Source: a virus (lineage: Duplodnaviria > Heunggongvirae > Uroviricota > Caudoviricetes). Taken from it: a stretch of DNA of 64,000 bases. Positions 4,541 through 63,415 of the stretch are shown one piece after another. A model generated the notes under the pieces. It saw nothing but the letters and a program-made list of their open reading frames with translations. It did not search any database and was not told where the DNA came from. The stretch lies in the IMG/VR virus record IMGVR_UViG_3300033074_000961; one strand, given 5' to 3'. Position 1 is the stretch's first letter, and each line of letters opens with the position of its first letter. A program made the position numbers and the translations under genes.

Positions 4541-4545
4541 AATGT

Positions 4546-10471: not shown

Positions 10472-10681
10472 TTAGAAACACTCCGTCTTTTTTGTTACAC
10501 CGAATTTCTTCATTGTTCTCTTCATGTCCGCAACCGCATCCCGCTTACGTTTGAAGGGAAGTCGGTTGGTAATCCACGCATCAGCAAACATACCGGGACC
10601 AAACCAAATGGGACATGCCCATTCCCATTGCCTATCAAGGCGACGGTTGAGGGTTCTGCGATAGGAGACAATCTCTTTCAT
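10472..10681 (-). CDS. hypothetical small protein
   Basis: 69-aa ORF between nadE and pncB. Confidence 0.3.
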   Translation of the reverse strand: MKEIVSYRRTLNRRLDRQWEWACPIWFGPGMFADAWITNRLPFKRKRDAVADMKRTMKKFGVTKKTECF

Positions 10682-11874
10682 GCTCCAATCTCCTGTAATG
10701 CCCGTTGAATTGCAGCGGCATCGCCTGTGTGCTTGCCAGCGTCATCCGAGAGCTTGACCACGGGAATCATACCTTGCCCGAAGTCAGCAGCAGTCAGTTT
10801 GATAACCATATTCAGCGGTTTGACTCCAACATCGTTAGTGAAGTTCGTTCCGATACCACCAACCGGCTGAGCAACTTTGCGATACTTATGGTCAATCGCC
10901 ACATAGTTGTAGTTTTTGCCAGCCATCACTTGGTCCTTCGGGGCAACCCCGAGACTGTCACTGAACACGAGACGCTTACCAATGGGATTGATACGCATAC
11001 GAGCGTAGAACGGCAGTACCTTATTGTCTGCCCAATCATAGGGTACACCCGAGTCTTGCCGCAGTCCATCGTACAGGTGAGCATCGTACTTCTCAAACTG
11101 ACGAAGGAAAAAGTCGGTCGTGAAAGTATCACTAAGAGATACACCAACATCACCCTCAAAGTGCTCTGCCCACACTTTGCGCCACATTTTGTCTGCCATG
11201 CGAACACCGTACAGTGCCGACATTGCCATAATGCATTCGTGGGCGTATGTGCCATGAGGGGTCACACCATACTTGAAAGCGAAATAGGGATTGCTCGTGC
11301 CGAGGAATCCATTAAGCATACGCATCTGTTTAACGACGGCTTCTTGAATCCTCTTGGCGAAACGACGGCGAGTGCCGAAGTCAATCCAGTGGCATCCCTC
11401 AGTCTGTAGGAGCACGCCTTTGTTCTCAATCCGTTGTTCCCACTCAGCATCGGGTTCTTGTCCCGTCATAATGAAATACAACTCGGAAATGATTGCCATG
11501 AGTTTGACTTCCCAGTAAATCGTGCGATACCACGGACCACGGATTTTGATACGAAGGTCTCCACCCTCTTGGGTAATGGTCACTTCATTGGGATTCATCT
11601 GATACCCATACAACCATTCAACATAGGTCGGGCGCATGTAAGGAATCTTCTTGAGCCAATCTGCCTCAAGATTGGTTAGACCAATGTGAGACAGCAAGTT
11701 GATTTGATGCTGTAGGTTTTCGGCAAACCCCTCGGGAAACTGAGTTTTGCCCCGGTTGAAGAAGGTGTACTCCACAATGGCACGGGGAAACATATGGAAG
11801 ACCACAGACCCCATGTTAATCTTGTAGAGGTCATCGTCCAACATGCTTGTGATAATCGGGCCTTTCACGTTCAT
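10678..11874 (-). CDS. pncB: nicotinate phosphoribosyltransferase
   Basis: DLYKINM N-terminus and GTSNPYFAFKYG region typical of PncB; 398 aa. Confidence 0.8.
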   Translation of the reverse strand: MNVKGPIITSMLDDDLYKINMGSVVFHMFPRAIVEYTFFNRGKTQFPEGFAENLQHQINLLSHIGLTNLEADWLKKIPYMRPTYVEWLYGYQMNPNEVTITQEGGDLRIKIRGPWYRTIYWEVKLMAIISELYFIMTGQEPDAEWEQRIENKGVLLQTEGCHWIDFGTRRRFAKRIQEAVVKQMRMLNGFLGTSNPYFAFKYGVTPHGTYAHECIMAMSALYGVRMADKMWRKVWAEHFEGDVGVSLSDTFTTDFFLRQFEKYDAHLYDGLRQDSGVPYDWADNKVLPFYARMRINPIGKRLVFSDSLGVAPKDQVMAGKNYNYVAIDHKYRKVAQPVGGIGTNFTNDVGVKPLNMVIKLTAADFGQGMIPVVKLSDDAGKHTGDAAAIQRALQEIGA

Positions 11875-11912: not shown

Positions 11913-12204
11913 CCAATCCAAGAATCTCTCTAAGTCTCTTGGAAGGAGGGTTGTTCAACTTCCGGCGTTGGTCTCCCCACCACCGATTCTTTCTGAACCA
12001 CTTGGCAATGTCTCGCTTTACCAAGGGTCTGCCTAAACGATGTTCAAAGCATCCAATGCAAATGATAGCGGTGGCATTCTCACGCATTACGAATTTCCAC
12101 AATCCATTATTGACATAAAAATCTTCTCCCCGTCTCCACGGGTGACACCCACAGTCAACACAAGGCCAGTGACGCTTGTTATCGTTATGTAGTCTGGAAA
12201 TCAT
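11905..12204 (-). CDS. Cys-rich hypothetical protein
   Basis: CVDCGCHPW...CIGCFEH. Overlaps the downstream start by 4 nt. Confidence 0.35.
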   Translation of the reverse strand: MISRLHNDNKRHWPCVDCGCHPWRRGEDFYVNNGLWKFVMRENATAIICIGCFEHRLGRPLVKRDIAKWFRKNRWWGDQRRKLNNPPSKRLREILGLGA

Positions 12205-13925
12205 TTGCGTTTGATTTGATGAAAGCTGTTGCCATTGATAAAGAAAATGCCATCGCTGGTTGAGAACAACTTCATAGTGCTATCAAATGGAGGATTCTGC
12301 AACGTTTCAACCTGAGTGGCAGTGGCGAACAATTCCAATTCGTCGGGACTCGCCAGCAAAGCACACATACCATTCTCCATCACTGTGAAGTTGATAGTAT
12401 CATATGCCACGTCATCCACTTTGCGAACATCGCACGAGTTGTATGCCTTGTTGAAAATGATAATGAAGCGATCATATTGACCCTTCTTTTCACCGAGGAC
12501 CACAACTACATTCCGTTCTGCCTTGGCACCGACAATACGATACCCGTCCAACTGTGGGACGTGCTTGCTGAAACACGCACCTTGTTTGTATGGCAAGGTC
12601 AGATACATCTTGCCGAGCAAGTCCTGTACCACACAACCATCGTACATCTTGGAAGTAGTAACCGAGACGTTGGCAATTTCAATAGCACGACGAACCATTT
12701 TGTTGCCGAATGCCGTGAAGGAGTTCTCCATCAACTTACCGTGGGCAATGGTATAGATGCTGTTGTTCCTTGCGAACATTTCATTGCTCGTTGCCGTGCC
12801 AATAGGTTCACTAGCAGTAAGAGTCTTGAAGACTATCTTATTGCTATTGTCTTGTTGAGCAGTAATGAGAGTGCCATCCGATGCCGAGCAGAGAGTAATC
12901 TTCTTGGCATTATGCGTACCAATCTCTTTCTTGTTGGCATAGATATGGGTCTTAGTTGCCACGTAGTAGATGCCCAAGATTTGTTGAATTGCCAAGATAG
13001 GATTGGTATAGGCAGCGATTTCACTGACACCAATCTTATCCGTGCCTTGGATAGTGATAACTTGAGTGGGCACAAGCAAGGGCACACTACTATCTGCCAG
13101 CGGTGGAACACCACGCTCACCATTCAAGAACACTCGTTTGAACCAATCCAAGTGACGGCCCGGGATGACTTTGAAATCATTAACCGATGGAGGGACACGC
13201 ACTCCGCTATGGAATACGCTAATACCGTCGTCCATTTGCTTCGCCTTATCCTTGGGTTTGTAGTTGGGGTGAGTCCCACGATAAGGATGGATATTGGTAT
13301 AGAGCCAGAACGTCAGCACAGACCACGAGAACCAATCCGACTCAATGGTGGGATTGTAGTGCATAGTTCCACCCTTGTCAAAGGTAGTAACTTTCCTATC
13401 TCTCACCGAGTCCATAATAGCAGTTGCTCTGAACGATGGAGTGGAGTAACTATCCGTATCAATAAACCACGGCGTAAGATTGCTTCCCTTTTGTTCGGCA
13501 AGAATGTTCAACTCATTCAAGTCCACAATGAGACATTGAGCGGAGTGAACGTCGGCAACCACCTTCTGCATTTCTTTGACAAGGTGATTAACCATATGGA
13601 AGTCAATGTTGTTCGCATCCTTGAATGTGCGGGTGAAGAACTTCAAGAGCGGTTCAACGTTGTCCACGAAGCGGGTAGTGTACCCGAGCGGTTTGCCGTT
13701 CTTCGGGTCAAAGATGATTTCTTGTGGGATGACTACTTGGGGATTCTTAATCAATCCCAACTCCTGCATTTTCTTTGGCGGGAGCATCTTCTGGTCGGGG
13801 TCATGGTACAACTTATACGCCATGCCACTTTGGACATAGATTGCCGCTTCACCGCCAGCTGCCAAGTAGTTCTTGTCAGTAATGGTGATTACGCCACTGT
13901 TGCCTATTTTGACTTTCTGGTTCAT
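12201..13925 (-). CDS. protein-kinase-like (ePK/RIO/Kdo-like fold) protein with C-terminal extension
   Basis: Gly-rich loop AAGGEAAIYV, lysine in AYKLY, catalytic-loop-like IVDLNELNIL, FIDTDS (DFG-like). Confidence 0.5.
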   Translation of the reverse strand: MNQKVKIGNSGVITITDKNYLAAGGEAAIYVQSGMAYKLYHDPDQKMLPPKKMQELGLIKNPQVVIPQEIIFDPKNGKPLGYTTRFVDNVEPLLKFFTRTFKDANNIDFHMVNHLVKEMQKVVADVHSAQCLIVDLNELNILAEQKGSNLTPWFIDTDSYSTPSFRATAIMDSVRDRKVTTFDKGGTMHYNPTIESDWFSWSVLTFWLYTNIHPYRGTHPNYKPKDKAKQMDDGISVFHSGVRVPPSVNDFKVIPGRHLDWFKRVFLNGERGVPPLADSSVPLLVPTQVITIQGTDKIGVSEIAAYTNPILAIQQILGIYYVATKTHIYANKKEIGTHNAKKITLCSASDGTLITAQQDNSNKIVFKTLTASEPIGTATSNEMFARNNSIYTIAHGKLMENSFTAFGNKMVRRAIEIANVSVTTSKMYDGCVVQDLLGKMYLTLPYKQGACFSKHVPQLDGYRIVGAKAERNVVVVLGEKKGQYDRFIIIFNKAYNSCDVRKVDDVAYDTINFTVMENGMCALLASPDELELFATATQVETLQNPPFDSTMKLFSTSDGIFFINGNSFHQIKRK

Positions 13926-14701
13926 ACCACAATTGCCGCTACGGAAATATCGTCGGAATGCTTAATGCCTTCCTTCTCACATTTCCTTTTGAATGCCGCA
14001 AGACGACGGAGAACGAATTCGCCCTCGGTTGTCTTGTATCCCGTGAACTCGTCAACGAGGCTAGTCCATAGGATAGGTTCATTATCTGCACGACGAAAAC
14101 TATTGATACCATCCGAAATAACTGCAATGATGTCTCCCGGCTCCACGGTCGCATCAAAACTATATGGTTCAAGTGGCTTGGTGTTGACTTGAACAGTCTT
14201 GCCGAGGATAGTCACGGCGACTTCCTTCTTATTATCCTCTATGTTCTCGTAGGCTTGTCGCCTTAGAGGGTCAAGTTGATAAGCAAGGTAGTCAGGTGCT
14301 CCGCTAGTAAGATGGATATGGATACTATTGACGCCTAGTTTGGTTCTATGAACCAAGACACCATCACCATACATACGAGCAGTCAGTTTACCTTCCTTCA
14401 CCCACGCCACAAGCAACGTCGCATCCAATGCTTGAGAATGGAGATAAGGGAAGACATCAAATACTCGTTGGGCATTGTGGATAACATCCTGCCCCCACAG
14501 TTTGGCATCACTTTCCAATCCCAAACGAATCTGTCTCTTGGCAGACATGGCAAGACAACGAGCACCGAAGTCCACGTCGGGAGAAGCGGAGCATCCATCA
14601 CATACTACTGCATATGTCTTGCCTGCGATTTCCCCTGTGAGAGCATAGTCCTCACATACAATGTGGTCTTTGCCGATTTGATATGTACTGTTGGCGTTCA
14701 T
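13922..14701 (-). CDS. PP2C-family Ser/Thr protein phosphatase
   Basis: AVVCDGCSAS, VISDGI, DDISV metal-binding motifs. ATGA overlap with the kinase gene. Confidence 0.65.
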   Translation of the reverse strand: MNANSTYQIGKDHIVCEDYALTGEIAGKTYAVVCDGCSASPDVDFGARCLAMSAKRQIRLGLESDAKLWGQDVIHNAQRVFDVFPYLHSQALDATLLVAWVKEGKLTARMYGDGVLVHRTKLGVNSIHIHLTSGAPDYLAYQLDPLRRQAYENIEDNKKEVAVTILGKTVQVNTKPLEPYSFDATVEPGDIIAVISDGINSFRRADNEPILWTSLVDEFTGYKTTEGEFVLRRLAAFKRKCEKEGIKHSDDISVAAIVV

Positions 14702-18014: not shown

Positions 18015-18944
18015 TTACGGTAAGCGTAGTATCTCATTGTTGAAGTAATCGTTCAACATATGGAGCAGCGGACGATGGTTTTCCGAAACCTCCGCTTCGC
18101 TTAATTCTGCAAAGTTTTTCCAAGTGACATACTCAATGTCATCTGCCGCCTTGGGTGTACCGCCATTGTATTTCAATACGAAAAGGGCGGTCATAATCTT
18201 GTCTTGCTCCGAGCGGTAACGCCAATCATTAACGAAAGTGCTACCAACATACTTCGGTTCAATCACGTCAAGTCCCGTCTCTTCTTTGACTTCACGGATA
18301 GCTGCCTCTTCCATGCTCTTATCTTGAGCGGGGTCTGTGAACCCACCGGGGAAGCAGAGGGTAGAACGATTGGGTTTACGAGCAAGTAGAAGGCGTTTGT
18401 TATCGTAATCAATCACCGCCATGTCCACTGTCAACTTGAACGATGGGAATTGATTTTGGACTGCGTAAACAATACCTTCACGAAAGTCTTGGGTGGGTTT
18501 GGCCTTGATGCCGATGCGTCGGCGAATTTCACTCGCCGAAATGAATTTGCTAGGCACAAGTTCAATGGTGGGAAACCCACCCTTGTAGGAATTGATGAAA
18601 CTATCCCGACTGCCATACATGACCGCTTTCAATTTGGGTCCGATGGTCTGCGAAATGAGCTTGTCAAGGTTCTTGCTCCAAAGGTCGTTGTCGCCAACGT
18701 CATTCAGATAGAGAACTTCAACATCCCGATACTTTTCCTCAACCATTGCCTTGCGGATGCCGAAGTCAAACGGGTTGTTGGCAGTACACTTGAGCGGGGA
18801 TAGACCGAGAACGATGATTACTCGGGGATGGGCGTTGCGGACAATCTCGATGATTTCTTGATGTCCCTCGTGGAGGAATGGCGATTGGAATCTCGCCACA
18901 ATAACGCCAACGTCTGCATTTTGTTCAGTCACTTTCATAGTCAC
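18015..18944 (-). CDS. nadM: bifunctional NMN/NaMN adenylyltransferase – Nudix (ADP-ribose pyrophosphatase) NadM-type
   Basis: N-terminal ARFQSPFLHEGH (HxGH NMNAT motif as in NadM). C-terminal Nudix box REVKEETGL. Confidence 0.75.
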   Translation of the reverse strand: MTMKVTEQNADVGVIVARFQSPFLHEGHQEIIEIVRNAHPRVIIVLGLSPLKCTANNPFDFGIRKAMVEEKYRDVEVLYLNDVGDNDLWSKNLDKLISQTIGPKLKAVMYGSRDSFINSYKGGFPTIELVPSKFISASEIRRRIGIKAKPTQDFREGIVYAVQNQFPSFKLTVDMAVIDYDNKRLLLARKPNRSTLCFPGGFTDPAQDKSMEEAAIREVKEETGLDVIEPKYVGSTFVNDWRYRSEQDKIMTALFVLKYNGGTPKAADDIEYVTWKNFAELSEAEVSENHRPLLHMLNDYFNNEILRLP

Positions 18945-21604: not shown

Positions 21605-22771
21605 TTACAAAAGTTCTTTTTCAAAGTATCCATTGACGTACCCTTCAATGTACTTAGCGTGAGCGGGACTGTCTGCCCCTTGCACGTCTCCCGCAAGGAA
21701 ACGAGCAGAGTTCAAACGGTCCTTGTCATAGATACCCGCTTGCATTCCTTCGAGATACTTTTCCTCGTTGTCATCATCGTCGGAAAGGACACCGGCATCT
21801 TGTGCTGCCTGCACCAGTTCATTTGAATTTGGTGAAAGCGAATCTGCCAGTGCAACACCACCAATCACGGCGGGATCACCATTAGGCGCATCAAGACCGG
21901 GAGTCTCCATCGCACGGCATTGTTCACAATCACACCCACAGTTGGGACAGTCAGTACCGCCACAAGTGCAAGAGTTGTCAGTATCAAACTCGGGGTCTCG
22001 GGGTTCAAATTCCGAAGTATAAGTATCAGGCATCGGTCCAGTATATTCACCAATTACCCGATATTTGCAGCAACGAAGTTTCTGGCATGAGCAGTCGGAA
22101 GGCACAGAAACCACGTCGGCGGGGTCAATTTCCACTAGAATCACACGCTCGCCCCAACCACGGGCATAGGCGAGAGAACCAGCGTGCAACCCGAAGGAGC
22201 ATCCATTGCGGAAGTCGTCATCGCACGAGGACCGTTCGATTTCGATAGTTTTCCCGATTTCATTCAAGATATGTCCCTCGGAGTCCGTGACACCTTGAAG
22301 CACCACAGTCTTGGTGTTACCCATCACCGAGTAGAAAGACGAGCGGACACCTTTGTAGGCAATAATCATACCCTCGGGAGTCAGGGGCATGTTTTTGTGC
22401 TCAAGAAAGTTGTACAATTCGTTGATGGCTCGAGCGGAAGGATTCTTCAACTTACGTGCCATGTAATTGGCAATCGGCCTGAAGGGGAGACCATCACGCA
22501 AGAAAGCAAGCACCCGATCCGAATCAACCCCGTGCATCGGACGACCAGCATACGTGACACCTGTAGAATTCACGGAGAGCAACCCCACCGTGTAGTCTTC
22601 CATGACTGCCTTGAGAGAGATAAGGGAGCGAAGCACTGCTTCGTTTCCCGCTTTGAATGCATCCACAATCTCCGTCCACTTGGGATGGTCATTGCGAGCA
22701 GTGAGAATTTCGGAACCACCATTCAATACGAGGGTGAGCGTTCCATTCGTCAAAGACATTGCTGTAATCAT
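21605..22771 (-). CDS. hypothetical protein with Cys-rich segment; possible rIIB-like partner of rIIA (by position only)
   Basis: 388 aa, immediately downstream of the rIIA-like gene. Confidence 0.3.
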   Translation of the reverse strand: MITAMSLTNGTLTLVLNGGSEILTARNDHPKWTEIVDAFKAGNEAVLRSLISLKAVMEDYTVGLLSVNSTGVTYAGRPMHGVDSDRVLAFLRDGLPFRPIANYMARKLKNPSARAINELYNFLEHKNMPLTPEGMIIAYKGVRSSFYSVMGNTKTVVLQGVTDSEGHILNEIGKTIEIERSSCDDDFRNGCSFGLHAGSLAYARGWGERVILVEIDPADVVSVPSDCSCQKLRCCKYRVIGEYTGPMPDTYTSEFEPRDPEFDTDNSCTCGGTDCPNCGCDCEQCRAMETPGLDAPNGDPAVIGGVALADSLSPNSNELVQAAQDAGVLSDDDDNEEKYLEGMQAGIYDKDRLNSARFLAGDVQGADSPAHAKYIEGYVNGYFEKELL

Positions 22772-23056: not shown

Positions 23057-25480
23057 TCAAGCGGCAACTTCGGACTCTTCAACTTTCTCTTCCACAACGG
23101 GTTGTGGAGGAGCTGGCGGGGTCATGTCCCGAGTCAAGTCAATGAACAAGTCCATTGCGTTGACATACTTGGCGACTTTCGCCGCTTCTTCAGGCTTGGC
23201 ATAGTAATCGTTTTCCAAGTTGCTGAAATTGATATAAGGATACATGGCTTTGGCATCTTCCGTAACTTTCTCAAAGTCAATCGTGCCCACAGTCTCACCC
23301 TTAACCTTATCCCAGTAGTGCAGCTCCTTGAGGGCATTCACCAGCTTGAGATAGTTGTCATAATTTTTGTCGCTTCCCGTAGCGATAAGTTTCAACATGA
23401 GACTGTTCTTGTCCATGATTTGTGGAATAAGCAAATCTGCCCACGCCTTTTCAACTACCGTGCTACCATTGAATGCTTCGGCATCCACGAGAGAAGAAAC
23501 ATTCGTGATACCGGGAAGTGCTTCTTCAATGACAGACCAAACGTTGGTCCAATCGCCACAAGAAACCGCTTCCTTGAACCATTTCGCTTCACTGGTTTGC
23601 TTGCCCACGATGTACACCCGAGGCACGTCCAGACCAAGTTCATCCACCAGAACCTTGATGGCTTCGGCAACTTCGTCAGCATCCCGATGCCAGCCATTGC
23701 TCAACTTAACCGTAACACTCGGGTCTTCGGAAGTGTGCCAGCGACGACGGCGACGAGCACGAGTAACTTCACCAATCTCCACGAAGTAAGCACCCTCTTC
23801 GATTTCACGAATGGGCACTTCCATTTCTTCAACGGAGACTTCACCATCAAAATCCATATAACGGAGCGTGCGAGTACCCCCGCCACCGCCACCGTAGGAA
23901 CGAGACACTTTGTTGACATTATTCCACGTTTTCGCAGCGGGAAGGATTTCAGATAGAATCAACACGGGCACAGTATCAAAATGATACTCTGCGAAGAAAG
24001 CATCCCGCACAGTCTGGTTGACGAAGTTGAGGACATGCACCGTGCGAATCTTGGAACCATCCTGAAGAATGAGATACCTAGCGGCAACGGACTGTCCATA
24101 CTTCGCACCAGTATCATTGATGATAACAGCAACTTGATGGGAAGCAACGATGCGGTTGGCACTTTCAGAAGTGCAACGATTCATCTTCGCCCGTTTCTTC
24201 TTCTTGCGATACGTCACCATCACGGGGATAGACGGATTGTGCTTGTGCTTCTGAATGCCGGGGAAGTTAGTGACATCATTATCAAAACGATTGATGCCAT
24301 TAAATCCAGCGTCGTCAATCACAATATCGTTCCACTTGAATGACCCACGGAAGTTGATCTCGATGGACGTGAGATTGCCATCCAAAACCTTAATGCGCTC
24401 AATCGTGTCGGCATCCTCGCCTTTTTCCAGCTCAAGCATACCCGTGCCGAAAAGGGAGTTGTAAATCATTTTCGCTTCCCACACGGTCTTGGCATCGGCG
24501 AACTTCGCTTGGAAGGACTCCTGAATCTTAGCGAAGATGCTTTCAATGCGGTCCATGAGTGCCTTGATAGTGAAGTCGGTGTACTCAAGGGACTCCCGAG
24601 AGTCAACGAACTGAACTTCACCCATCTTGAAGAACAAGGTCACGTCATTGTTCTGGAGAAGGTCAAAGAGACAACGCTTTTGAGCAGTCAGAGACATGCG
24701 CTTGCTAAGGACGTTCCAATCAATACGGTAAGGAACACCGCCCATGAATGCCACGCCCACGGCAGAACCTTCCGAGCGAGGGCGAACGTTCCAACCCTCG
24801 CCTTGCAACGTCGGCGGGGTATTGCGGAATTTCATCATACGATTGAAATGGCTGTCTTCCAAGCGATTGATGGTAGGGAGGACTTCCCAATACTTAAAGT
24901 AATCGGCAGCCTCTTGATGGAAAGTCCACAGAGAAGATTGCTTCACGGGGATGCAGACTTCAATGCCAGAGGGTTCATCCGAAGGAGTGCGGGACAATTC
25001 ATAGACCGTGTGAAGTTTGGTGGAGTCGCCCTTGACACAGTTGTAAACAGCCTTCTCACCATTCACCCAAGACGTAACCGTGAAAGAATCGGCATGAGCA
25101 AATCCTGCCTTGCACCCGTAACCGAGTACGCCGTTCTCGGCAGCAGAGTTGCGCTTGGTGGACAATCCCATGACGCAATAGATGCCACGGATTTGGTCCT
25201 TGGTCAGTCCAGAACCGAAGTCACGGACTTTGAAGGTGAAATCTTCCATCGTCGGGAGAGTAACGATGACTTCGGAAGTTGGTTTGCCAGCGACAATGTG
25301 AGCATCGTTGGCGTTGTTGGAGTATTCACGGACAGATGCCAGCTCTTTGCGAGTGTACATCTTATCCGAGAGGGATTGCATGATACGGGCCTTGGTGTCA
25401 TCCGTAAAGTCGAAGTTTCCAACCACTTCAACCCCCATACCTTGCGTTTCAATCGTTTGCGGCGTTTCGTTCGGAATCAT
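23057..25480 (-). CDS. rIIA: rIIA-like protein with N-terminal GHKL (Bergerat-fold) ATPase domain
   Basis: N-box SNNANDAH, G1 VRDFGSGL, G2 LGYGCKAGF; 807 aa. The pattern matches my recollection of T4 rIIA (ITNMIDAH / CRDFGPG / FGLGSKSPF). Confidence 0.55.
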   Translation of the reverse strand: MIPNETPQTIETQGMGVEVVGNFDFTDDTKARIMQSLSDKMYTRKELASVREYSNNANDAHIVAGKPTSEVIVTLPTMEDFTFKVRDFGSGLTKDQIRGIYCVMGLSTKRNSAAENGVLGYGCKAGFAHADSFTVTSWVNGEKAVYNCVKGDSTKLHTVYELSRTPSDEPSGIEVCIPVKQSSLWTFHQEAADYFKYWEVLPTINRLEDSHFNRMMKFRNTPPTLQGEGWNVRPRSEGSAVGVAFMGGVPYRIDWNVLSKRMSLTAQKRCLFDLLQNNDVTLFFKMGEVQFVDSRESLEYTDFTIKALMDRIESIFAKIQESFQAKFADAKTVWEAKMIYNSLFGTGMLELEKGEDADTIERIKVLDGNLTSIEINFRGSFKWNDIVIDDAGFNGINRFDNDVTNFPGIQKHKHNPSIPVMVTYRKKKKRAKMNRCTSESANRIVASHQVAVIINDTGAKYGQSVAARYLILQDGSKIRTVHVLNFVNQTVRDAFFAEYHFDTVPVLILSEILPAAKTWNNVNKVSRSYGGGGGGTRTLRYMDFDGEVSVEEMEVPIREIEEGAYFVEIGEVTRARRRRRWHTSEDPSVTVKLSNGWHRDADEVAEAIKVLVDELGLDVPRVYIVGKQTSEAKWFKEAVSCGDWTNVWSVIEEALPGITNVSSLVDAEAFNGSTVVEKAWADLLIPQIMDKNSLMLKLIATGSDKNYDNYLKLVNALKELHYWDKVKGETVGTIDFEKVTEDAKAMYPYINFSNLENDYYAKPEEAAKVAKYVNAMDLFIDLTRDMTPPAPPQPVVEEKVEESEVAA

Positions 25481-34592: not shown

Positions 34593-35051
34593 TTAGGGGT
34601 GAAGCGGTAAGTCGCCCACCAGCATTTCTCTATCGGGACTATCATCAGCGATGAATAAGTACCCGCAAGTGAGTTCGTTTCTGAACAGAACCCACCGACC
34701 ATCTTCGTTTATGATTGCATCTGCCGTAAACGTGCGGCGGTCAATTAACTGAGCAATTTCTTCGTGGAGGGAATAACCATACTCAGGATCATATACTAAT
34801 CCCGCAGGCCATCCCTTCTTCAATGCTGCCTTGATAACTTCTGCCAGTTGAATTTTGTTGGCAGACAGACAAATCGTTGTACCAAATCCCTTGGCATCAT
34901 GTTGCCATTCTTTCACCCGAGGATGCTTGGGATACTCGAAAGTGAACTGGTTCGCCGCATGTGCGGCGTGTGCCATACCCTTACCGGGATTCAGCGAGGG
35001 CAAGTCATTACGCATCAAAATGTATAGGCGATGATTGGAACGTTTCTTCAT
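34593..35051 (-). CDS. peptidyl-tRNA hydrolase PTH2-family protein
   Basis: LYILMRNDLPSLNPGKGMAHAAHAA parallels the PTH2 VVRxDLxMxxGKxAAQxxHAA motif. Confidence 0.5.
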   Translation of the reverse strand: MKKRSNHRLYILMRNDLPSLNPGKGMAHAAHAANQFTFEYPKHPRVKEWQHDAKGFGTTICLSANKIQLAEVIKAALKKGWPAGLVYDPEYGYSLHEEIAQLIDRRTFTADAIINEDGRWVLFRNELTCGYLFIADDSPDREMLVGDLPLHP

Positions 35052-37707: not shown

Positions 37708-39006
37708 TCATACTGCAATAGGTGCTTTGATAGCGGGGTGAGACTTATAGTCCACCAATTGTATGTCCTCAAACTTGAAATCCATCAGATTGCGGACATT
37801 GGGGTTGATGACTAACTTGGGCAGAATCTTGGGCGTTCTGCTTAGTTGTTCCTTGACTTGTTCCAAATGATTCTCATAGATATGCAAGTCTCCATAGGTA
37901 TGAGTGAATACTCCCGGCACCATATTGACACAATGAGCGATCAATGCAGTCAGTAGGCAATAGGACGTGATATTGAAAGGTACACCGAGGAAGGTGTCAC
38001 AACTGCGTTGGTAGAGCAAGCAATTAAGCCTTCGGCGAGGAACACCTACATTATCCAAATTCTTATGTTGATCTTCTTCCGTTTTACCGAGGTATTTGGG
38101 GAGCAATCCATACTTGCCATTATGATACACTTCGATTCTTTCTGCTATTGACAGAACTTCGGTATGAAAATGAAACATACAATGACATGGAGGTAGAGCA
38201 CAATGGTCAACCCAATAAGGATGCCAAGCACTAACAATTATGCGACGGTCATCGGGATTGGTCTTGAGCTTATCTACAACTTTCTTGAGTTGGTCCACTG
38301 TTCCATATTGGGTAGAGTCTAGTGGGTTATCGGCATTTCGTGGGACATAATAAGGAAATGCTCTCCACATTCCACCATAAGTTCCTTCCCCAAGTTCGCC
38401 CCACTTCTCAGCAAACTTGGCGTCGGTCTTAATGCGGTGAATGAATTCCGCCTGTGTATATTGCTCTGGTTCTGGACCGTGATGATGTTTGGTAAAGTCG
38501 GTAGTGCGTGTTCTTTCCTTGTTATACCAATCAACATATCGTTTATACGCCCATTCATCCCAGATATGAACGTCATTGTCCACAAGGTATTTGATGTTAG
38601 TATCCCCACGGATGAACCACAGCAATTCATGGACGATTGCTTTGAAGAAAATCTTCTTGGTAGTAAGAATAGGGAAGGCATCAAGGTCAATGTCGAACTT
38701 CGCTTGTGCTCCAAAGACCCCAATGGTATCAACCCCTGTACGATTCTTCTTACGTTTCCCTTCACGGAGAATAAGATTCAACAAATCATTGTATTCCGAA
38801 TCTACATGATTGTAAAATTGAATGACTTCTTCACAGGGAAGACATGGATGAACTTCTAGTCCACAGTTTGAACAGAGTTCTCTATCAATCTCTTCCTTTA
38901 CAACTTTGGGTAGAGATTCTTCAACACCCAGCTTTTGTGCAAGAGTCTTGAGCATCGCTTTTTCGTCGTTGGTTAATTCACTCATTTCCAGTACTTGGTT
39001 ATCCAA
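37708..39006 (-). CDS. thyA: thymidylate synthase family enzyme (ThyA / dNMP hydroxymethylase-type) with ~100-aa N-terminal Cys-containing extension
   Basis: FKAIVHELLWFIRGDTN, IVSAWHP, LPPCH active-site motif. N-terminal CSNCG...CLPCEE. Confidence 0.7.
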   Translation of the reverse strand: MDNQVLEMSELTNDEKAMLKTLAQKLGVEESLPKVVKEEIDRELCSNCGLEVHPCLPCEEVIQFYNHVDSEYNDLLNLILREGKRKKNRTGVDTIGVFGAQAKFDIDLDAFPILTTKKIFFKAIVHELLWFIRGDTNIKYLVDNDVHIWDEWAYKRYVDWYNKERTRTTDFTKHHHGPEPEQYTQAEFIHRIKTDAKFAEKWGELGEGTYGGMWRAFPYYVPRNADNPLDSTQYGTVDQLKKVVDKLKTNPDDRRIIVSAWHPYWVDHCALPPCHCMFHFHTEVLSIAERIEVYHNGKYGLLPKYLGKTEEDQHKNLDNVGVPRRRLNCLLYQRSCDTFLGVPFNITSYCLLTALIAHCVNMVPGVFTHTYGDLHIYENHLEQVKEQLSRTPKILPKLVINPNVRNLMDFKFEDIQLVDYKSHPAIKAPIAV

Positions 39007-40243: not shown

Positions 40244-40577
40244 AAGGGATTAGTTTATAGTCATAGTCTTCTATGATATGGGGAGTTTCCCACGAAGACC
40301 ATTCATTACAGGTGACAACTTCATAGATACCATCTTTGCACTCATCAAGGTTGATGATGTTTTTGACTACTTCATCAGCACCAGCATTATGACAATCTTC
40401 ATAGAGAAGATTATATCCTTGGCATTTGCGCCGAAGATAACGGAGGGTTTTCTTGATATGTATTCCACTCCCGTCGTGCCATACCGAAGTTGTAAGTCGG
40501 ACAACACACTTGGGCGGGGGTTCTTTATACTTGGCAACCAAGTCATCAAAGGTTAGTGCTGTGATTTCTTTGCTCAT
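40203..40577 (-). CDS. hypothetical protein
   Basis: 124-aa ORF. Confidence 0.35.
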   Translation of the reverse strand: MSKEITALTFDDLVAKYKEPPPKCVVRLTTSVWHDGSGIHIKKTLRYLRRKCQGYNLLYEDCHNAGADEVVKNIINLDECKDGIYEVVTCNEWSSWETPHIIEDYDYKLIPYEETTPLRPVDGK

Positions 40578-41176
40578 CGGGCAACTACTTTGATGAAGTA
40601 GGTTAGTTCAATCTTCTCACCCACCGTAGAGGATACATCCTTGATAAGTTGACCTATCGTAACCGTATCCTCACGGACAAAGGGTTGATTGAGCAGACAT
40701 ATCTGGTTCACTCGCTTCTGAATTTTTCCTTGAATGATCTTGTCCCGCACCGGAGCAGGTTTGCCCTCCGTCTCACGGATGTATTCACTTGCCCACTTCA
40801 AGCGAACATCCTCTGGAATGGACTCCATAGAGATGTACTCGGGAGCAACAGGAGCAGAGACAATATGCATACAGATATTTTTTGCCAATGTAATGAAGGC
40901 ATCACTCTTGGCAACGAAGTCGGTCTGACATGCAAGCACAATCATTGCGCCAACACGGTTGTTGTGGACGTAAGAGTACACAATCTTGGTGTTGGCAGTG
41001 CGATTCGCCATCTCATTGGCATCTGCTTGCTTCTCGGCAATCAGAATCTTGACCGCTTCCGCCTCATCACCATTCGCTCGTTGAAGAGCTTCGTTGATCT
41101 TATTGATAGGTGAAAAGGTGATAGCACGGATATGCTTTACCTTCTCCACATTGGTCATTGTCTTTTCAACATTCAT
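40574..41176 (-). CDS. tsf: translation elongation factor Ts (EF-Ts)-like protein, short form
   Basis: N-terminal UBA-like VKHIRAITFSPINKINEALQ...AEAVKILIAE, core LACQTDFVAKSDAF (compare EF-Ts CETDFVA+N..F), C-terminal LLNQPFVREDTVTIGQLIKD. Confidence 0.55.
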   Translation of the reverse strand: MNVEKTMTNVEKVKHIRAITFSPINKINEALQRANGDEAEAVKILIAEKQADANEMANRTANTKIVYSYVHNNRVGAMIVLACQTDFVAKSDAFITLAKNICMHIVSAPVAPEYISMESIPEDVRLKWASEYIRETEGKPAPVRDKIIQGKIQKRVNQICLLNQPFVREDTVTIGQLIKDVSSTVGEKIELTYFIKVVAR

Positions 41177-41436
41177 TGTTCAAGTCCTTTCCATAACTCG
41201 GGGTCGGGATGGAGTTCCATACACTTTTTCATGAAATCACCCCGAGAGGGTATCTTGCTCTTACCGGGAAAACTCGCCGTGGCGTATGCCAAGAGAACAT
41301 CTAATGGATGTTCTTTGACATGATGCTGTAGATAGGCATAGAAACCATTTAAGGTTTCCCAATTGCCTTTCGTCATTTCTCCATCTATGAAATCATAAAT
41401 GGAATCAAGCACCGCATCACTTACGTCCTGCATCAT
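41173..41436 (-). CDS. hypothetical protein
   Basis: Internal start MMQDV of ORF 41173..41646. Confidence 0.3.
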   Translation of the reverse strand: MMQDVSDAVLDSIYDFIDGEMTKGNWETLNGFYAYLQHHVKEHPLDVLLAYATASFPGKSKIPSRGDFMKKCMELHPDPELWKGLEQ

Positions 41437-41864: not shown

Positions 41865-42656
41865 TCATTTTGGATATTCAGGTATCATTGCAAGGATTTT
41901 ATCCTTATCTTCGGTAAACTTCCACGCACCCTTGGAAACCCATCTAGTGCGCTCAACGGTGTTGTCTTGAATTTGAGCTTCAAAACTCTCTTTCACAATG
42001 AGACGCCCGTTCTTCTCACCATCGGTGTAATCCGTGGCCCAGTTCTTACCCGCTTGGTGAATCATCTCATGCTTGTCCGAAGTGGACTTGCCGTGAAGCT
42101 CCTTGTGCGAGTACAGGGATTGAGCAACCATTGAGACAGAGTTGCGAGCACAATCTTGATTACGCCAGATGAAGTAGTTCATCACTTCAACTCTGTCAGG
42201 AATGGTGAATACACGGGCATCAAAGAATGCCAGATGCTTTCGCATCCTCGCTTCTTTCAAATCCATTGGCAGTGTTTGAGTAATCTTAAACGCTCTCTCA
42301 AGCCGACATTGATTGAATTCCGCAGTCATGATAGATGCCGCCACAGAACACATTTTCTGTAGGTTGCCGTCAAACCATGCACAAGTACCAATGTCAACGA
42401 AGTCGGTCAAAAGTACACTGATCTCGTCAGATTGGGTATAGGCGAAGACCGCCCCCTGAAGTTCTGGGAGCATCGCAATGATTGCGGCGTCAATGTCCTC
42501 AAAGAGTCCTTTGTCAAAAGGTTTCTCAAGTCCTCGGGTGTACGTATGAAATGCCTTACCATCCAGACGGATGATTGTGTAAGTGCGTCTTGGCAGTAAG
42601 AACCGAGTACGGTCCTCATACTGCCCCTTCATTCTGTCGCCAAGTGCGTCTTGCAT
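41865..42656 (-). CDS. Thg1-like protein (tRNA-His guanylyltransferase / 3'-5' nucleotide polymerase family)
   Basis: RLDGKAFHTYTRGLEKPFD, AYTQSDEISVLL, FFDARVFTIP, NYFIWRNQDCARNSVSM follow the Thg1 family motif pattern. Confidence 0.6.
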   Translation of the reverse strand: MQDALGDRMKGQYEDRTRFLLPRRTYTIIRLDGKAFHTYTRGLEKPFDKGLFEDIDAAIIAMLPELQGAVFAYTQSDEISVLLTDFVDIGTCAWFDGNLQKMCSVAASIMTAEFNQCRLERAFKITQTLPMDLKEARMRKHLAFFDARVFTIPDRVEVMNYFIWRNQDCARNSVSMVAQSLYSHKELHGKSTSDKHEMIHQAGKNWATDYTDGEKNGRLIVKESFEAQIQDNTVERTRWVSKGAWKFTEDKDKILAMIPEYPK

Positions 42657-46185: not shown

Positions 46186-47193
46186 TTACTTTCCAGCGAT
46201 GGGTTTCATGCCCGAACGATGGCGTCCGAACACCTTTTTACGCAACTCCACAATTGTATCACAAAGGTCTTCCTTGCCATACTGCGGACGGGAGTTCACG
46301 TCTCGTGCAATCAATCGCTTAATGAATGCACACATTTCTTCGGGTACATCTTTAGGCACCATCTTACGCTCAACGTATTCTGGACCACCCGATAAAGCAT
46401 AAATCATCGTCATTCCAAGACTGTAATAGTCAGACTCGGGAATGAGGGGTTTGCCAGCTATTTCTTCGGGAGGGGCAAAGTAAGGAGTGAACCCCTTTGC
46501 TTCGGCAGAACCCGTGGGTTTCACCATTGACAAACCGAAGTCCACCAGAACTGCCATGTGCCTATCCTCTTGCACGATGATATTCTGGGGTTTCAAATCG
46601 CCATGCACCACGCCATGACGATGAATGTAATTAAGAGCATTGAGGATTCTTTCAGTAATCCACGCAACGGTTTCTGGTTCCATTGCTCCTACTCGTTTCA
46701 CTTCTTTCTCAAGAGTGAGACCGGGAATGTAGCTCATGACGAGCAGTACCCGTCCATCTTCCAACTTATACAAATCCCTCATGGCGGGGAGAGCGTAGTG
46801 TCTCAAATCCCACAACACTCGGCACTCTTGAACAAGCATATCCACATCATCCAAAGAGACGTTAGAGCAGTCTTTGATACAGACCAATTCTTTGAGAATG
46901 GAATGCTCTGCTTTGTAGGTGCGACCAAACCCGCCTTCGGCAATAACAGATTGAACTTTGTAAGGTCCAATTATCTTGGTAGTGCCTTCGATACGTTCAC
47001 GGTCAAAATCACGACGCTTACGGGGGTCGGTAAGAATGTCATGTGCTTCGTTGAGGGAACGGGCATGAGACCCCACAGTGGCATGGTCTAAATCAGGATG
47101 ATGTTCCTTCATTAGTGCCCGATATGCCGCCTCAATCACTGAGGGACTTGCTTTCGGGTGGACTTGGAGGACTTGATACCAGTCGTTTTTCAT
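46186..47193 (-). CDS. J-domain (DnaJ) – Ser/Thr protein kinase fusion
   Basis: N-terminus DWYQVLQV...MKEHHPD (J domain with HPD). Kinase HRHGVVHGDLKPQNII, DFG, APE-like PPE. Confidence 0.65.
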   Translation of the reverse strand: MKNDWYQVLQVHPKASPSVIEAAYRALMKEHHPDLDHATVGSHARSLNEAHDILTDPRKRRDFDRERIEGTTKIIGPYKVQSVIAEGGFGRTYKAEHSILKELVCIKDCSNVSLDDVDMLVQECRVLWDLRHYALPAMRDLYKLEDGRVLLVMSYIPGLTLEKEVKRVGAMEPETVAWITERILNALNYIHRHGVVHGDLKPQNIIVQEDRHMAVLVDFGLSMVKPTGSAEAKGFTPYFAPPEEIAGKPLIPESDYYSLGMTMIYALSGGPEYVERKMVPKDVPEEMCAFIKRLIARDVNSRPQYGKEDLCDTIVELRKKVFGRHRSGMKPIAGK

Positions 47194-47225: not shown

Positions 47226-47380
47226 TGTCAAGCGGATATTTTTAATCGCCTCGTTGATCGGCATCTCGGGCAGTTAGCCAACCCACATTCCATTCACCAC
47301 GAGCATCTTCATCAGGATAATCGGGGCAATCTTTTTGAGGCACACCATCAAAATACGCTTTGAATCCAGCATCCCACGCT

Positions 47381-47617
47381 TCAAGTTTTTCTTTGTCTGT
47401 CATAAGTTTCAAATGTTATACCAAATCCCTCCGACTCAAATTGAGGAGGAGTAAGATGTCGAATTACTGTGGCAGCACAAGCAGTATCTTGTTTCAATTC
47501 ACAAATGACTTCGCCGTGATACATCATGAAGAATTCAGATGCGTTTTCAGCACGGACTCTTCCACCATTATTCAGGTGTTGTAATGCTTCACTCGGCGTC
47601 ATCTTCATTTCCTTCAA
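47381..47617 (-). CDS. hypothetical protein
   Basis: 78-aa ORF. Confidence 0.3.
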   Translation of the reverse strand: MKEMKMTPSEALQHLNNGGRVRAENASEFFMMYHGEVICELKQDTACAATVIRHLTPPQFESEGFGITFETYDRQRKT

Positions 47618-59416: not shown

Positions 59417-59620
59417 ATGGCAGAACCAACACGTAAAAGTTACTCGCTTCGCCAAGCAATCAATGCTTTCGCAGGCGTAGATACCGAGCAATCCATCCGC
59501 AACGACACTTGTACCATGTGTCGGAAACCCGCACTTGCCTTCAAAGATGAACTAAGCAAGAAAGAGTTCACCATCAGCGGCATGTGCCAAGAGTGCCAAG
59601 ACAAAGTTTTTGGCTCTTGA
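59417..59620 (+). CDS. small zinc-ribbon protein
   Basis: CTMCRK...CQECQD. Confidence 0.4.
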   Translation: MAEPTRKSYSLRQAINAFAGVDTEQSIRNDTCTMCRKPALAFKDELSKKEFTISGMCQECQDKVFGS

Positions 59621-59655
59621 CAACTGACGATAAAACGCTAAACTCAAGCACAATT

Positions 59656-60918
59656 ATGGCAACTCTAATCAAAGAAGTAAAGCTGATCATGACCGAGGTT
59701 GGCACCAACAACAACAAGTGGTGGACCGGACAGCTTTTTGACGATGGCACAGTCAAAGCGACTTGGGGACGTGTCGGATACTCTGGTGACTCGGGTGAAT
59801 GGCAGGGTGGACAATCGTATTTGGATAAGAAAGTCAAGGAGAAGATCAAGAAGGGTTATACTGAGTTGAAGACTGTTGGTAACGCTGGTATTGCGCCGTC
59901 CAGTTCTGCTCCCGTTCGCAATGCAGACCTTCACCAGATTGCCAAAACTCAACTTATCAAATCTTCCAACCCGACGCTGGAACGTTTGATTAAGCGTTTC
60001 GTTGAAGCAAACGTCCACAAGATTACTCGTGACACGCAAATCACCTACAATTCATCAACGGGTTTGTTTGCCACGCCTCTCGGTATTGTCACGATGGAAG
60101 GTTTGACCGATGCTCGTGACTTGCTCGCCAAACTTGCTCCTATCGTTCGTGGTCGTCGCTTCGGGTCCGAAGCAGATGCTCTTTTGAGTAAGTATCTTCG
60201 TCTCATTCCTCAACATTTGGGTATGGGGCGATTCTCTTGCCAGTCGGTTATCCCCGACGACAATGCTTTGCAGAAGCAGAGCGACTTGATTGACTCTTTG
60301 GAGTCGTCCTATCAAGCAATGTCCACGCAACCGGCTCAAGCGGGTCAACCCGTCAAGAAGCAGGAAACCGTGTTCCAAGTGGACTTGGACGTACTCACCG
60401 ACCAATCCGAGCGCAATCGTTTGGAACGTTATTTTGAAACGTCCAAGAAACGTATGCACGGGTATGACAACGTGCGAGTGAAGGAAATCTTCGCCGTCAA
60501 TGTCCACGATATGACTCGTGGGTTTGAAAACAGCACCACTCCCATTAAAGAAGTGTTCCACGGCACTTCCCAAGCAAACTGCCTCTCCATTCTCAAGAGT
60601 GGACTCAAGGTGTCGCCTCCGTCCACTGCTGCCATCGCTGGCAAGATGTTCGGCAACGGCATCTATGGCGCAATCAACTCCACCAAGAGCCTTGGTTATA
60701 CTTTCAACCGTTGGGGTCAAGGTGGAGTGGGCGATGCGGGATGGCTCTTCATCTGTCAGTTCGCAATGGGCAAGATTTACGAGACTCGGCACAGCTGCTC
60801 TCCGCAACGGGGTTACGACTCTGTATGGGCGAAGGCTGGCGGCAGTCTGGCGAATGATGAATTGATCGTCTATCGCAATACCCAAGTCAAAATCACTCAC
60901 CTTTTGGAGTGCAAATAA
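59656..60918 (+). CDS. WGR domain – PARP-like catalytic domain ADP-ribosyltransferase
   Basis: N-terminus ATWGRVGYSG (WGR). C-terminus VFHGTSQANCLSILKSGLKV...GKMFGNGIYGA...NDELIVY parallels the PARP1 H-G-S / Y / E catalytic core (LLWHGSR...GYMFGKGIYFA...YNEYIVYD). Confidence 0.65.
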   Translation: MATLIKEVKLIMTEVGTNNNKWWTGQLFDDGTVKATWGRVGYSGDSGEWQGGQSYLDKKVKEKIKKGYTELKTVGNAGIAPSSSAPVRNADLHQIAKTQLIKSSNPTLERLIKRFVEANVHKITRDTQITYNSSTGLFATPLGIVTMEGLTDARDLLAKLAPIVRGRRFGSEADALLSKYLRLIPQHLGMGRFSCQSVIPDDNALQKQSDLIDSLESSYQAMSTQPAQAGQPVKKQETVFQVDLDVLTDQSERNRLERYFETSKKRMHGYDNVRVKEIFAVNVHDMTRGFENSTTPIKEVFHGTSQANCLSILKSGLKVSPPSTAAIAGKMFGNGIYGAINSTKSLGYTFNRWGQGGVGDAGWLFICQFAMGKIYETRHSCSPQRGYDSVWAKAGGSLANDELIVYRNTQVKITHLLECK

Positions 60919-62298: not shown

Positions 62299-62477
62299 TG
62301 CCCGACTTGCCCGACATTGTGGTTCATCTTCCGGCAGAGCATTTCGATGCTCTGTCGGAAGTTATCTTTTCGGGACTTCAACGGGCAAACATTGACCCTA
62401 AGACCCGCAACGAGCTTCGGGATTGGTGGACCGCCGAAAAGGAATTCATAGAAGACGAAATAAAGGGACAAGCGTGA
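62298..62477 (+). CDS. small hypothetical protein (59 aa, below the ORF-track cutoff)
   Basis: Manual translation MPDLPDIVVHLPAEHFDALSEVIFSGLQRANIDPKTRNELRDWWTAEKEFIEDEIKGQA. TAATG and GTGA couplings on either side. Confidence 0.3.
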   Translation: MPDLPDIVVHLPAEHFDALSEVIFSGLQRANIDPKTRNELRDWWTAEKEFIEDEIKGQA

Positions 62478-63415
62478 GCGAGATTGTTATTGTAATGGGA
62501 TTCCCCGCCTCGGGGAAGAGTACGACGGTTGACCAATTTGTTAAACAAGGGTACACCCGCTTCAATCGTGATGCTGCTGGCGGCACAATGGAAGGTTTAC
62601 ATAATGCCGTTGACCAATACCTTCAGAAGTGCAACGACAATGTAGTACTTGATAATCTTTATCCTTCGGTGGAAAGTCGCAAGGCAATCATCGCCATCGC
62701 CAAGAAGCACAAGGCAACCATTCGGTGTGCCATGATGGGTACAAGCATGGAAGATTCTATGCTGAATGCCTGTCTCCGCATGATGCAGAAGCATGGATGT
62801 ATCCCCGACCCCAAAGATTTTGGACGAGTGGCAGACCCTAACACCTTCCCCGTAGCAGTTATCTACAAGTATCGGAAAGAGTTTCAACAACCGACCACAA
62901 AGGAGGGATTCGGTTCTGTCCAAGTAGTGCCGTTTGTTCGCACTTGGGGACCAGATTACATCAACAAAGCCATCCTTGTGGACTATGATGGCACTCTCCG
63001 ACTCAGCACGGGTAAACAGAAGTTCCCTATTCTTAAAGGGGATATAAAGATGATGCCGGGAAGGAAGGAAGTCCTACAACGGTACAAGGACCAAGGGTAT
63101 CTTATTTTGGGCGTAAGTAATCAATCAGGTGTCGCCAAGGGGCAGATTACCTTCGCTGAGTGCAAGCAACGATTTGTTGATACCAATGAAATGCTTGGGA
63201 AGGGTATCGTGGACGAATTCTCGTTCTGCCCTCACAAAGTCCCACCCATTTCATGCTACTGCCGCAAACCCAATGTTGGAATAAGTGCTTTTTACATTTA
63301 TCAACACAAGCTTCGACCTTCGGAATGTATCATGGTTGGCGATATGGGGAGCGATAAAACATTCGCTCATAGAAGTGGGTTTAAGTTTGTTCATGCCGAC
63401 GAATTTTTCAAATAA
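62474..63415 (+). CDS. pnk: polynucleotide 5'-kinase / 3'-phosphatase (T4 Pnk-like)
   Basis: N-terminal P-loop IVIVMGFPASGKST, C-terminal HAD phosphatase ILVDYDGTL ... GDMGSDK. GTG start 62474 preferred (P-loop near the N-terminus as in T4 Pnk). The ORF track gives ATG 62423. Confidence 0.65.
   Translation: MSEIVIVMGFPASGKSTTVDQFVKQGYTRFNRDAAGGTMEGLHNAVDQYLQKCNDNVVLDNLYPSVESRKAIIAIAKKHKATIRCAMMGTSMEDSMLNACLRMMQKHGCIPDPKDFGRVADPNTFPVAVIYKYRKEFQQPTTKEGFGSVQVVPFVRTWGPDYINKAILVDYDGTLRLSTGKQKFPILKGDIKMMPGRKEVLQRYKDQGYLILGVSNQSGVAKGQITFAECKQRFVDTNEMLGKGIVDEFSFCPHKVPPISCYCRKPNVGISAFYIYQHKLRPSECIMVGDMGSDKTFAHRSGFKFVHADEFFK

Follow-up and report, generated by a model that had tools for sequence, protein, structure and literature searches.

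A family of phage-encoded, Thermus-type EF-Ts proteins with a conserved Asp/Phe wedge and a remodeled N-terminal loop

The 64,000-nucleotide stretch of viral DNA analyzed here (IMG/VR record IMGVR_UViG_3300033074_000961, hereafter the window) contains a 200-amino-acid open reading frame (ORF) that an earlier note, made from the letters alone, had proposed to be a phage-encoded homolog of short-form elongation factor Ts (EF-Ts). Sequence, fold and motifs all bear out that it is a short-form EF-Ts. The search with the Pfam EF_TS profile (PF00889) that the note had suggested returned a match of 90.2 bits to residues 53-188 (cutoff 27; E-value 1.8e-25). The best match among solved structures was EF-Ts of Thermus thermophilus (1aip_C; E-value 2.4e-33), with residues 7-195 of the query aligned to residues 1-190 of the chain, so that the N-terminal domain was included. 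The TDFV and LLNQPFV motifs, when read base by base, lie where the note had placed them. Searches of PHROGs and PADLOC with the protein gave no meaningful match. We conclude from profile, motif and fold that this ORF encodes an EF-Ts, with support far beyond chance.

The ORF is intact and opens with an ATG codon (M1) that overlaps the TGA stop codon of the upstream ORF (ATGA). This overlap fits translational coupling of EF-Ts with the upstream ORF, and a Shine-Dalgarno-like motif lies just 5' of the start (Table 1). In the family alignment almost all homologs begin at the equivalent of M7 (MTN.EKVK), so M7 (position 41158) is an alternative start that would give a protein of 194 amino acids; the domains are intact with either start. 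A scan for promoters and terminators around the gene gave counts not above those in shuffled sequence.

We modeled the protein with AlphaFold2 (AF2) from 29 family members. The model (predicted local distance difference test score, pLDDT, 88; predicted template modeling score 0.78) has three N-terminal helices at residues 9-20, 24-33 and 38-50 (pLDDT 86-89) followed by an alpha/beta core. All 20 of the 20 Foldseek matches to this model at E < 0.001 were EF-Ts structures, including 1aip (E-value 6e-16; template modeling (TM) score 0.70) and 1tfe, whose core superimposed with a TM score of 0.87 and a root-mean-square deviation of 1.8 Å over 142 columns. The N-terminus of the phage protein aligned with that of 1aip_C, and the model gave a partial match to 2cp9, the ubiquitin-associated (UBA) domain of human mitochondrial EF-Ts (probability 0.90). 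The three-helix domain is thus consistent with the UBA-like N-terminus that had been noticed in the sequence.

Table 1. Features of the EF-Ts locus and its surroundings in the window.
Feature	Coordinates	Strand	Basis
EF-Ts coding sequence, 200 amino acids	40574..41176	minus	ORF list, Pfam EF_TS, 1aip_C match, family alignment
AAGGA Shine-Dalgarno-like motif, 8 nt 5' of the M1 ATG	41185..41189	minus	sequence
N-terminal three-helix UBA-like domain, residues 7-58	41003..41158	minus	AF2 helices, family conservation
EF-Ts core (dimerization-type) domain, residues 59-200	40577..41002	minus	Pfam EF_TS, Foldseek
TDFV motif (T85 D86 F87 V88; E. coli T79-V82)	40913-40924	minus	sequence
LLNQPFV motif, residues 161-167 (T. 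thermophilus LLEQPFV, E. coli LTGQPFV)	40676-40696	minus	sequence
Conserved 87-amino-acid ORF directly upstream of EF-Ts	41173..41436	minus	tblastn across loci
Thg1-like tRNA-His guanylyltransferase, syntenic anchor of the region	41865..42656	minus	Pfam Thg1, 94.9 bits; neighbor of EF-Ts in related loci
PTH2-type peptidyl-tRNA hydrolase, same co-directional array	34593..35051	minus	Pfam PTH2, 27.2 bits (cutoff 23); syntenic in L002-L004

The surroundings of the gene are those of a phage. The window encodes rIIA (23057-25480) and rIIB (21605-22771) among tightly packed, mostly co-directional ORFs, many of which lack a family match; the remainder form an accessory set typical of jumbo phages. 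This set includes ThyA, dihydrofolate reductase (DHFR) and an ATP-dependent DNA ligase; phosphoribosyl pyrophosphate (PRPP) synthetase, an NAPRTase-family enzyme, NadE and an NMNAT-Nudix fusion; an RNA ligase and a Pnkp-like kinase/phosphatase; and a Thg1-like enzyme, PTH2, a fusion of DnaJ with a Ser/Thr kinase, PP2C and a PARP with a WGR domain. The contig from which the window derives is incomplete (94.6 kb), and syntenic relatives lie on contigs of 236, 312, 354 and 215 kb. Both the rIIA and rIIB genes and the synteny on viral contigs of 214-354 kb support the attribution of this EF-Ts to a phage. Among deposited phage genomes, no relative similar to the window at the DNA level was found.

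We compared the contexts of related genes in viral and bacterial DNA. The family contexts that we retrieved comprise matches at 79%, 64% and 60% identity to the window protein and 11 IMG/VR contigs at 51-68% (two of which measure 353,772 and 214,733 bp), and all of them share the same phage neighborhood of Thg1, ThyA or ThyX, DHFR, ligase, PTH2 and an SPFH protein. No rpsB, pyrH or frr was found near EF-Ts in the loci at least 51% identical to the window protein. At bacterial loci, rpsB lies immediately upstream of tsf in 79 of 80 cases, usually with pyrH-frr following; the remaining locus (L010) starts 168 bp ahead of tsf and retains frr. None of the 80 bacterial loci recovered encodes an EF-Ts more than 40% identical to that of the window. 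As the rpsB/pyrH/frr context is missing, we regard the gene as viral and not as a cellular tsf.

Deposited phage genomes yielded few counterparts, since tsf matches occurred in only 9 of 50,697 records. We checked four of these (H4, H5, H7 and H9) and rejected them as contamination: the records, OR846595.1, OR844988.1, OQ572403.1 and MT835604.1 (L166-L169), are all flagged UNVERIFIED and hold host DNA with a bacterial rpsB-tsf block, which in three (L166-L168) is accompanied by pyrH-frr. One contaminated record is a 386-kb ‘Staphylococcus phage’. A fifth record bears the organism name Salmonella enterica. With three further records left aside, the only match found in a phage context was the 595-kb uncultured phage LR756511. 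Matches to tsf in deposited ‘phage’ records are thus mostly bacterial contamination, which a neighboring rpsB exposes.

The earlier note had called such genes rare in DNA phages. This holds for deposited genomes and isolates, but EF-Ts has been reported before in huge phages: Al-Shayeb et al. (2020) described elongation factors G, Tu and Ts there and proposed that they sustain translation (PMC7162821). In the literature that we searched this was the sole mention, and no paper characterizing any phage EF-Ts or describing the present family was found. The gene in the window thus adds to the phage EF-Ts proteins already known from huge phages, and it belongs to a large and distinct lineage with a derived N-terminal domain.

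A search of 5.8 billion proteins gave 910 matches, the best 120 of which are 51-100% identical to the query and about 194 amino acids long. The viral family contains at least 116 full-length clusters, several of them on contigs of 236-380 kb. Identity within the family ranges from 46 to 99% (median 58%), no outside sequence exceeds 44%, and in a neighbor-joining tree the family was monophyletic in 50 of 50 bootstraps. In an exhaustive library clustered at 50%, the family appeared as one full-length representative (276 bits), and the next full-length single-domain match scored 128 bits. The best non-family matches in this exhaustive search (P0121-P0137) are proteins of 377-1133 amino acids, most with two EF-Ts stretches, which we take to be probably polyproteins of the plastid type that carry short-form EF-Ts domains in tandem; their high scores reflect duplication rather than closeness to the phage family. 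We conclude that the viral EF-Ts family is discrete and monophyletic, with a long residence in the viral lineage.

The nearest neighbors of the family in the tree are the viral contigs L097 and L098, although the evidence for a sister placement is weak at such depth. Four IMG/VR contigs (L097-L100) and LR756511.1 (L165) carry EF-Ts proteins that are 26-33% identical to the family, have more canonical N-terminal motifs and are encoded with no rpsB nearby; in L098, ThyA directly follows EF-Ts. The protein of the 595-kb phage LR756511.1, which lay outside the tree, is only 26% identical and, with those of L099 and L100 (27-30%), looks like a separate lineage. These sequences suggest that phages hold several separate EF-Ts lineages. 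We rejected the closest bacterial EF-Ts sequences (from a Gammaproteobacteria metagenome-assembled genome, Caldisericales and the candidate phyla radiation) as guides to the host, as their identity is only 35-40% with the window protein and no more than 44% with any member of the family, and thus uninformative.

The gene also bears the marks of selection in a viral genome. Between the window EF-Ts and its homolog in L002 (79% identity), the ratio of nonsynonymous to synonymous substitution rates (dN/dS) is 0.12, indicating purifying selection, and its GC content (0.461) and third-position GC content (GC3, 0.517) are close to those of the window genes (0.460 ± 0.035 and 0.487 ± 0.075). Purifying selection and phage-like base composition argue for an old, functional viral gene and not for a recent capture or an assembly artifact. 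The idea that a bacterial tsf entered the window through chimeric assembly or contamination, or persists as a decaying passenger, draws on the four ‘phage’ GenBank records that are exactly such contamination. We consider it effectively refuted, given that the same gene in the same phage synteny occurs in many independent assemblies (JGI, ENA, Logan and NCBI), that the bacterial neighbors are missing, and that the ORF is intact, under purifying selection and matched to the phage in base composition.

We compared conservation column by column between 120 members of the viral family and a bacterial EF-Ts set, using EF-Tu contact residues from published work (PMC3747624, PMC9529903). In EF-Ts, an Asp/Phe wedge displaces Mg2+ and GDP from EF-Tu (PMC3747624, PMC9529903), and in the viral family these residues are 100% (D86) and 99% (F87) conserved (E. 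coli D80/F81). R17, which corresponds to E. coli R12 and M. tuberculosis R13, is 97% conserved. The helix that contacts EF-Tu domain III is kept as well (K99 98%, M103 95%, H104 98%, and S107; E. coli K166, M170, H171 and A174), and V167 of the phage protein aligns with E. coli V234, another domain III contact (PMC3747624).

In its overall form the phage protein resembles EF-Ts of T. thermophilus (196 amino acids; 1AIP, 1TFE), with which it shares 35% identity in an end-to-end alignment. Both are short forms that consist of an N-terminal three-helix domain and a single core domain, and they share TDFV, a G-K/R-x-x-K motif, LL.QPF and a C-terminal GE.I strand. With 200 residues, one core and neither coiled-coil nor C-terminal module, the phage protein has the makeup of the Thermus type (about 195-200 amino acids). 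It differs in that the TGAGMMDVKRAL loop of the T. thermophilus protein is replaced in the phage family by T-x-S-P-x-N-K-I-N-x-A-L, in a two-residue insertion (P109-V110), in two invariant cysteines specific to the viral family (C102 and C160), and in its phage context instead of a place beside rpsB. Cys190 of Thermus EF-Ts forms an inter-subunit disulfide; the aligned position 195 is V or I in the viral family, and the C-terminal strand is conserved. Compared with E. coli EF-Ts (283 amino acids; 1EFU), the phage protein shares the D80/F81 wedge and the equivalents of R12, K166, M170, H171 and V234. It lacks residues ~90-162 of the E. coli protein, the coiled-coil dimerization module and the C-terminal module, and it is only 21-22% identical in the structural alignment, with the equivalents of K23 and K51 not conserved in the phage family.

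From these features we consider the phage protein, a selectively maintained EF-Ts of the Thermus-type short form, to be probably a working exchange factor for host EF-Tu. Its gene belongs to an extended run of accessory genes, all in one direction, in an uncultivated and probably jumbo phage. By this account, it would bind host EF-Tu during infection, and its Asp86/Phe87 wedge would enter the nucleotide pocket of EF-Tu and expel GDP. The EF-Tu-GTP regenerated in this way would keep up the supply of aminoacyl-tRNA ternary complexes, providing extra exchange capacity. The protein may act beside the Thg1-like enzyme, PTH2, the RNA ligase and Pnkp-like kinase/phosphatase and, possibly, a ribosome modulation factor (RMF); relatives additionally carry a class-II aminoacyl-tRNA synthetase and RMF. 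We infer binding to host EF-Tu, exchange activity, a Thermus-like homodimerization and a benefit to the phage. The setting recalls the translation factors of huge phages, where EF-Ts likewise lies on very large genomes among other translation genes and the same hypothesis of sustained translation has been put forward (PMC7162821).

Several observations weigh against an ordinary exchange factor. The TIGR00116 tsf model (NCBIfam), which has 293 positions and was built on long-form EF-Ts, scored 101.6 bits, a marginal miss at 2.5 bits below its equivalog cutoff of 104.05. The viral family does not match the canonical N-terminal signature L-R-x-x-T-G-A-G-M-M-D-C-K-K-A-L, whose loop (TGAGMMDCKK) contacts EF-Tu domain I in bacterial EF-Ts (PMC3747624, PMC9529903). 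This loop is replaced by the family motif T-x-S-P-x-N-K-I-N, with R17, T20, A30 and L31 retained and with substitutions at G18 (P23, 96%), M20 (N25, 88%) and K23 (N28, 80%) throughout the family; at the same loop, the bacterial set has G at 63-68%, M at 58% and K at 74%. M. tuberculosis K24, the equivalent of E. coli K23, makes salt bridges with EF-Tu D144/D145, and K51 counts among the residues vital for EF-Tu binding (PMC9529903); K51 is M56 in 95% of the viral family. As the equivalents of both K23 and K51 are lost, EF-Tu binding may depart from the canonical mode. Furthermore, EF-Ts lay within 10 kb in only 3 of 8 strongly syntenic loci (those with at least 12 window proteins matched, among relatives retrieved from IMG/VR through a neighboring gene or Thg1), so the gene is dispensable in close relatives. 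This patchiness fits a conditionally useful accessory, a counter-defense gene or a translation booster equally well.

The equivalents of bacterial E74 and G44 have likewise changed, to V80 and K49. Judged from these alignments, the catalytic machinery appears intact, while one of the two surfaces that contact EF-Tu domain I has been rebuilt and then held fixed. It is conceivable, though in our estimate unlikely, that the remodeled loop and the K51-to-M change mark a retargeted EF-Ts that engages EF-Tu non-canonically. Such a protein might keep EF-Tu working, or hide it, in the face of host immunity that would cleave, modify or recruit it, or might escape host control of exchange, and it would be the first EF-Tu-centered anti-defense or takeover factor of a DNA phage.

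The identity of the EF-Tu partner bears on these readings. No EF-Tu was found in the 64-kb window, nor on the 11 IMG/VR contigs with the EF-Ts family in a pattern-limited scan, which relied on 8-mers from E. coli, among them the near-universal HADYVKNM, and was thus limited but not blind. Host EF-Tu is therefore the likely partner. That the protein instead serves a phage EF-Tu encoded elsewhere in the genome seems to us very improbable: none of the 11 contigs was among those found to bear EF-Tu, even though other jumbo viral contigs carry the gene (uncultivated viral genomes of 224-533 kb), huge phages have been reported with it (PMC7162821), and the altered N-terminal loop could mean co-evolution with a divergent partner. 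Five IMG/VR contigs of 223-533 kb (L114, L117, L123, L126 and L131) encode full-length EF-Tu proteins 58-69% identical to that of E. coli, and none of the five carries the EF-Ts family.

At the level of the locus, the gene comes and goes between related phages. In L162 and L163, a homolog of the ORF downstream of EF-Ts begins ~60 bp after Thg1, so the ~1.3-kb block that holds EF-Ts and the 87-amino-acid ORF is absent there; in L251 and L253, the place of EF-Ts after the 87-amino-acid ORF is taken by an RNase_T-like gene; and in L003, EF-Ts is found on the upstream side of Thg1 and not downstream of it. As the contigs of these relatives cover only part of each genome, EF-Ts may lie beyond them, but none of those lacking the gene appeared in a scan for EF-Ts across the whole collection. 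We conclude that EF-Ts is not a core gene of this clade. The slot between Thg1 and a 124-amino-acid ORF is a site of accessory-gene turnover (L162/L163 8813-10336; L164; L172; L183; L251; L253), and in relatives without EF-Ts and the 87-amino-acid ORF the neighboring genes are 74-89% identical.

The earlier note had also suggested that the protein might protect EF-Tu from the Lit protease or from kinase or AMPylation toxins. We found nothing that points to protection, and this part of the note remains speculation. More broadly, a counter-defense protein would shield EF-Tu, or compete with or act as a decoy in EF-Tu-based immunity, rather than raise exchange; candidate targets are Lit, the type IV Thoeris caspase-like protease, Avs7 and Doc/kinase-type toxins. 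Several defense systems do act on or through EF-Tu: Lit and type IV Thoeris cleave it, and for Avs7 it serves as a recruited scaffold (PMC12803255). The patchy occurrence of EF-Ts in a slot of accessory turnover is often seen for counter-defense genes, the loop that contacts EF-Tu is remodeled yet conserved across the family, and the window is rich in likely counter-defense functions (NAD+ synthesis and RNA repair). We nevertheless judge this explanation unlikely. Neither PADLOC nor PHROGs provided a link, and a pure shield would not need the catalytic wedge, which is invariant. Moreover, EF-Tu accounts for 6-10% of the proteome in E. coli (PMC12803255), so that shielding it one for one would require very high and costly expression.

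A repurposed EF-Tu binder, which would recruit EF-Tu into a phage complex or sequester it to shut off or re-tune host translation, appears less likely still. The Q-beta replicase holoenzyme offers a precedent for phage use of the EF-Tu/EF-Ts pair, and structures of EF-Ts/EF-Tu as replicase subunits (3mmp, 4r71 and 3agp) were among our fold matches; there, however, the host pair is borrowed for RNA replication, whereas the DNA phage studied here brings an EF-Ts of its own, with no evident link to a polymerase. The derived N-terminal domain is compatible with such a role, and in one variant EF-Ts may act with the DnaJ-Ser/Thr kinase fusion, which is conserved ~5 kb away in relatives. That kinase is also present in relatives that lack EF-Ts, all residues related to exchange are retained, and we found neither a fusion partner nor a gene that strictly accompanies EF-Ts.

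Of the EF-Ts loci, 7 of 10 also contain the adjacent 87-amino-acid ORF, against none of 5 syntenic loci without EF-Ts. The alignment of this ORF has no conserved block; D7, T53, R65, F68 and C72 are invariant, and the C-terminus carries L-W-K-x-L, in the form ELWKGL in 6 of 7 sequences. The ORF has no Pfam or PADLOC match. We rejected a functional link between it and EF-Ts, as L251 and L253 carry the ORF with the RNase_T-like gene and without EF-Ts.

We thus continue to favor an exchange factor for host EF-Tu. Phage translation factors have been catalogued but are essentially uncharacterized, and this family provides a good test case: its members are ~195 amino acids long, abundant in metagenomes, viral, ancient and, to judge from their sequences, catalytically intact, with one altered EF-Tu contact surface. 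If the protein is an ordinary exchange factor, this would mean that EF-Tu recycling becomes limiting in jumbo-phage infection; if it is not, it would suggest a novel manipulation of EF-Tu, which several defense systems already exploit.

Other genes of the window touch on related functions. RNA ligase and the Pnkp-like polynucleotide kinase/3'-phosphatase are encoded at 4546-5184 (minus strand) and 62423-63415 (plus strand), respectively, and together with the Thg1-like enzyme and PTH2 they make up a repertoire for tRNA repair and translation maintenance. A small ORF at 47242-47412 (minus strand) gave a sub-threshold match to RMF (20.2 bits; cutoff 27.9) and is 43% identical to an RMF-annotated ORF of L251, which has two (851-1003 and 4485-4658). 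RMF is mainly gammaproteobacterial, so this ORF gives a weak hint of a gammaproteobacterial host. The DnaJ (J-domain)-Ser/Thr kinase fusion (46186-47193, minus strand) is 73-87% conserved in relatives with or without EF-Ts; chaperones or translation factors of the host may be its substrates.

The window also encodes a near-complete set for NAD+ synthesis and salvage, all on the minus strand: PRPP synthetase (2724-3686), NadE NAD synthase (9691-10470), an NAPRTase-family enzyme (10678-11874) and a cytidylyltransferase(NMNAT)-NUDIX fusion (18015-18944). The set looks like the pathways by which phages restore NAD+ in the face of NAD-depleting defenses. At 59584-60918 (plus strand) lies a gene for a 444-amino-acid protein that combines a WGR domain with a PARP catalytic domain (80.7 bits), a eukaryote-like PARP architecture; the protein is conserved at 86% in the relative L003. 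Thymidylate synthase (37708-39006, minus strand) has 432 amino acids, of which residues 71-432 match the 266-position Pfam model, so the protein carries an N-terminal extension and internal insertions; this long form is also found in relatives (432-438 amino acids). Finally, a 574-amino-acid protein with a weak Kdo/WaaP-kinase-like match (12201-13925, minus strand) is encoded directly upstream of a PP2C-type phosphatase (13922-14701, minus strand), and the two may form a kinase/phosphatase pair.

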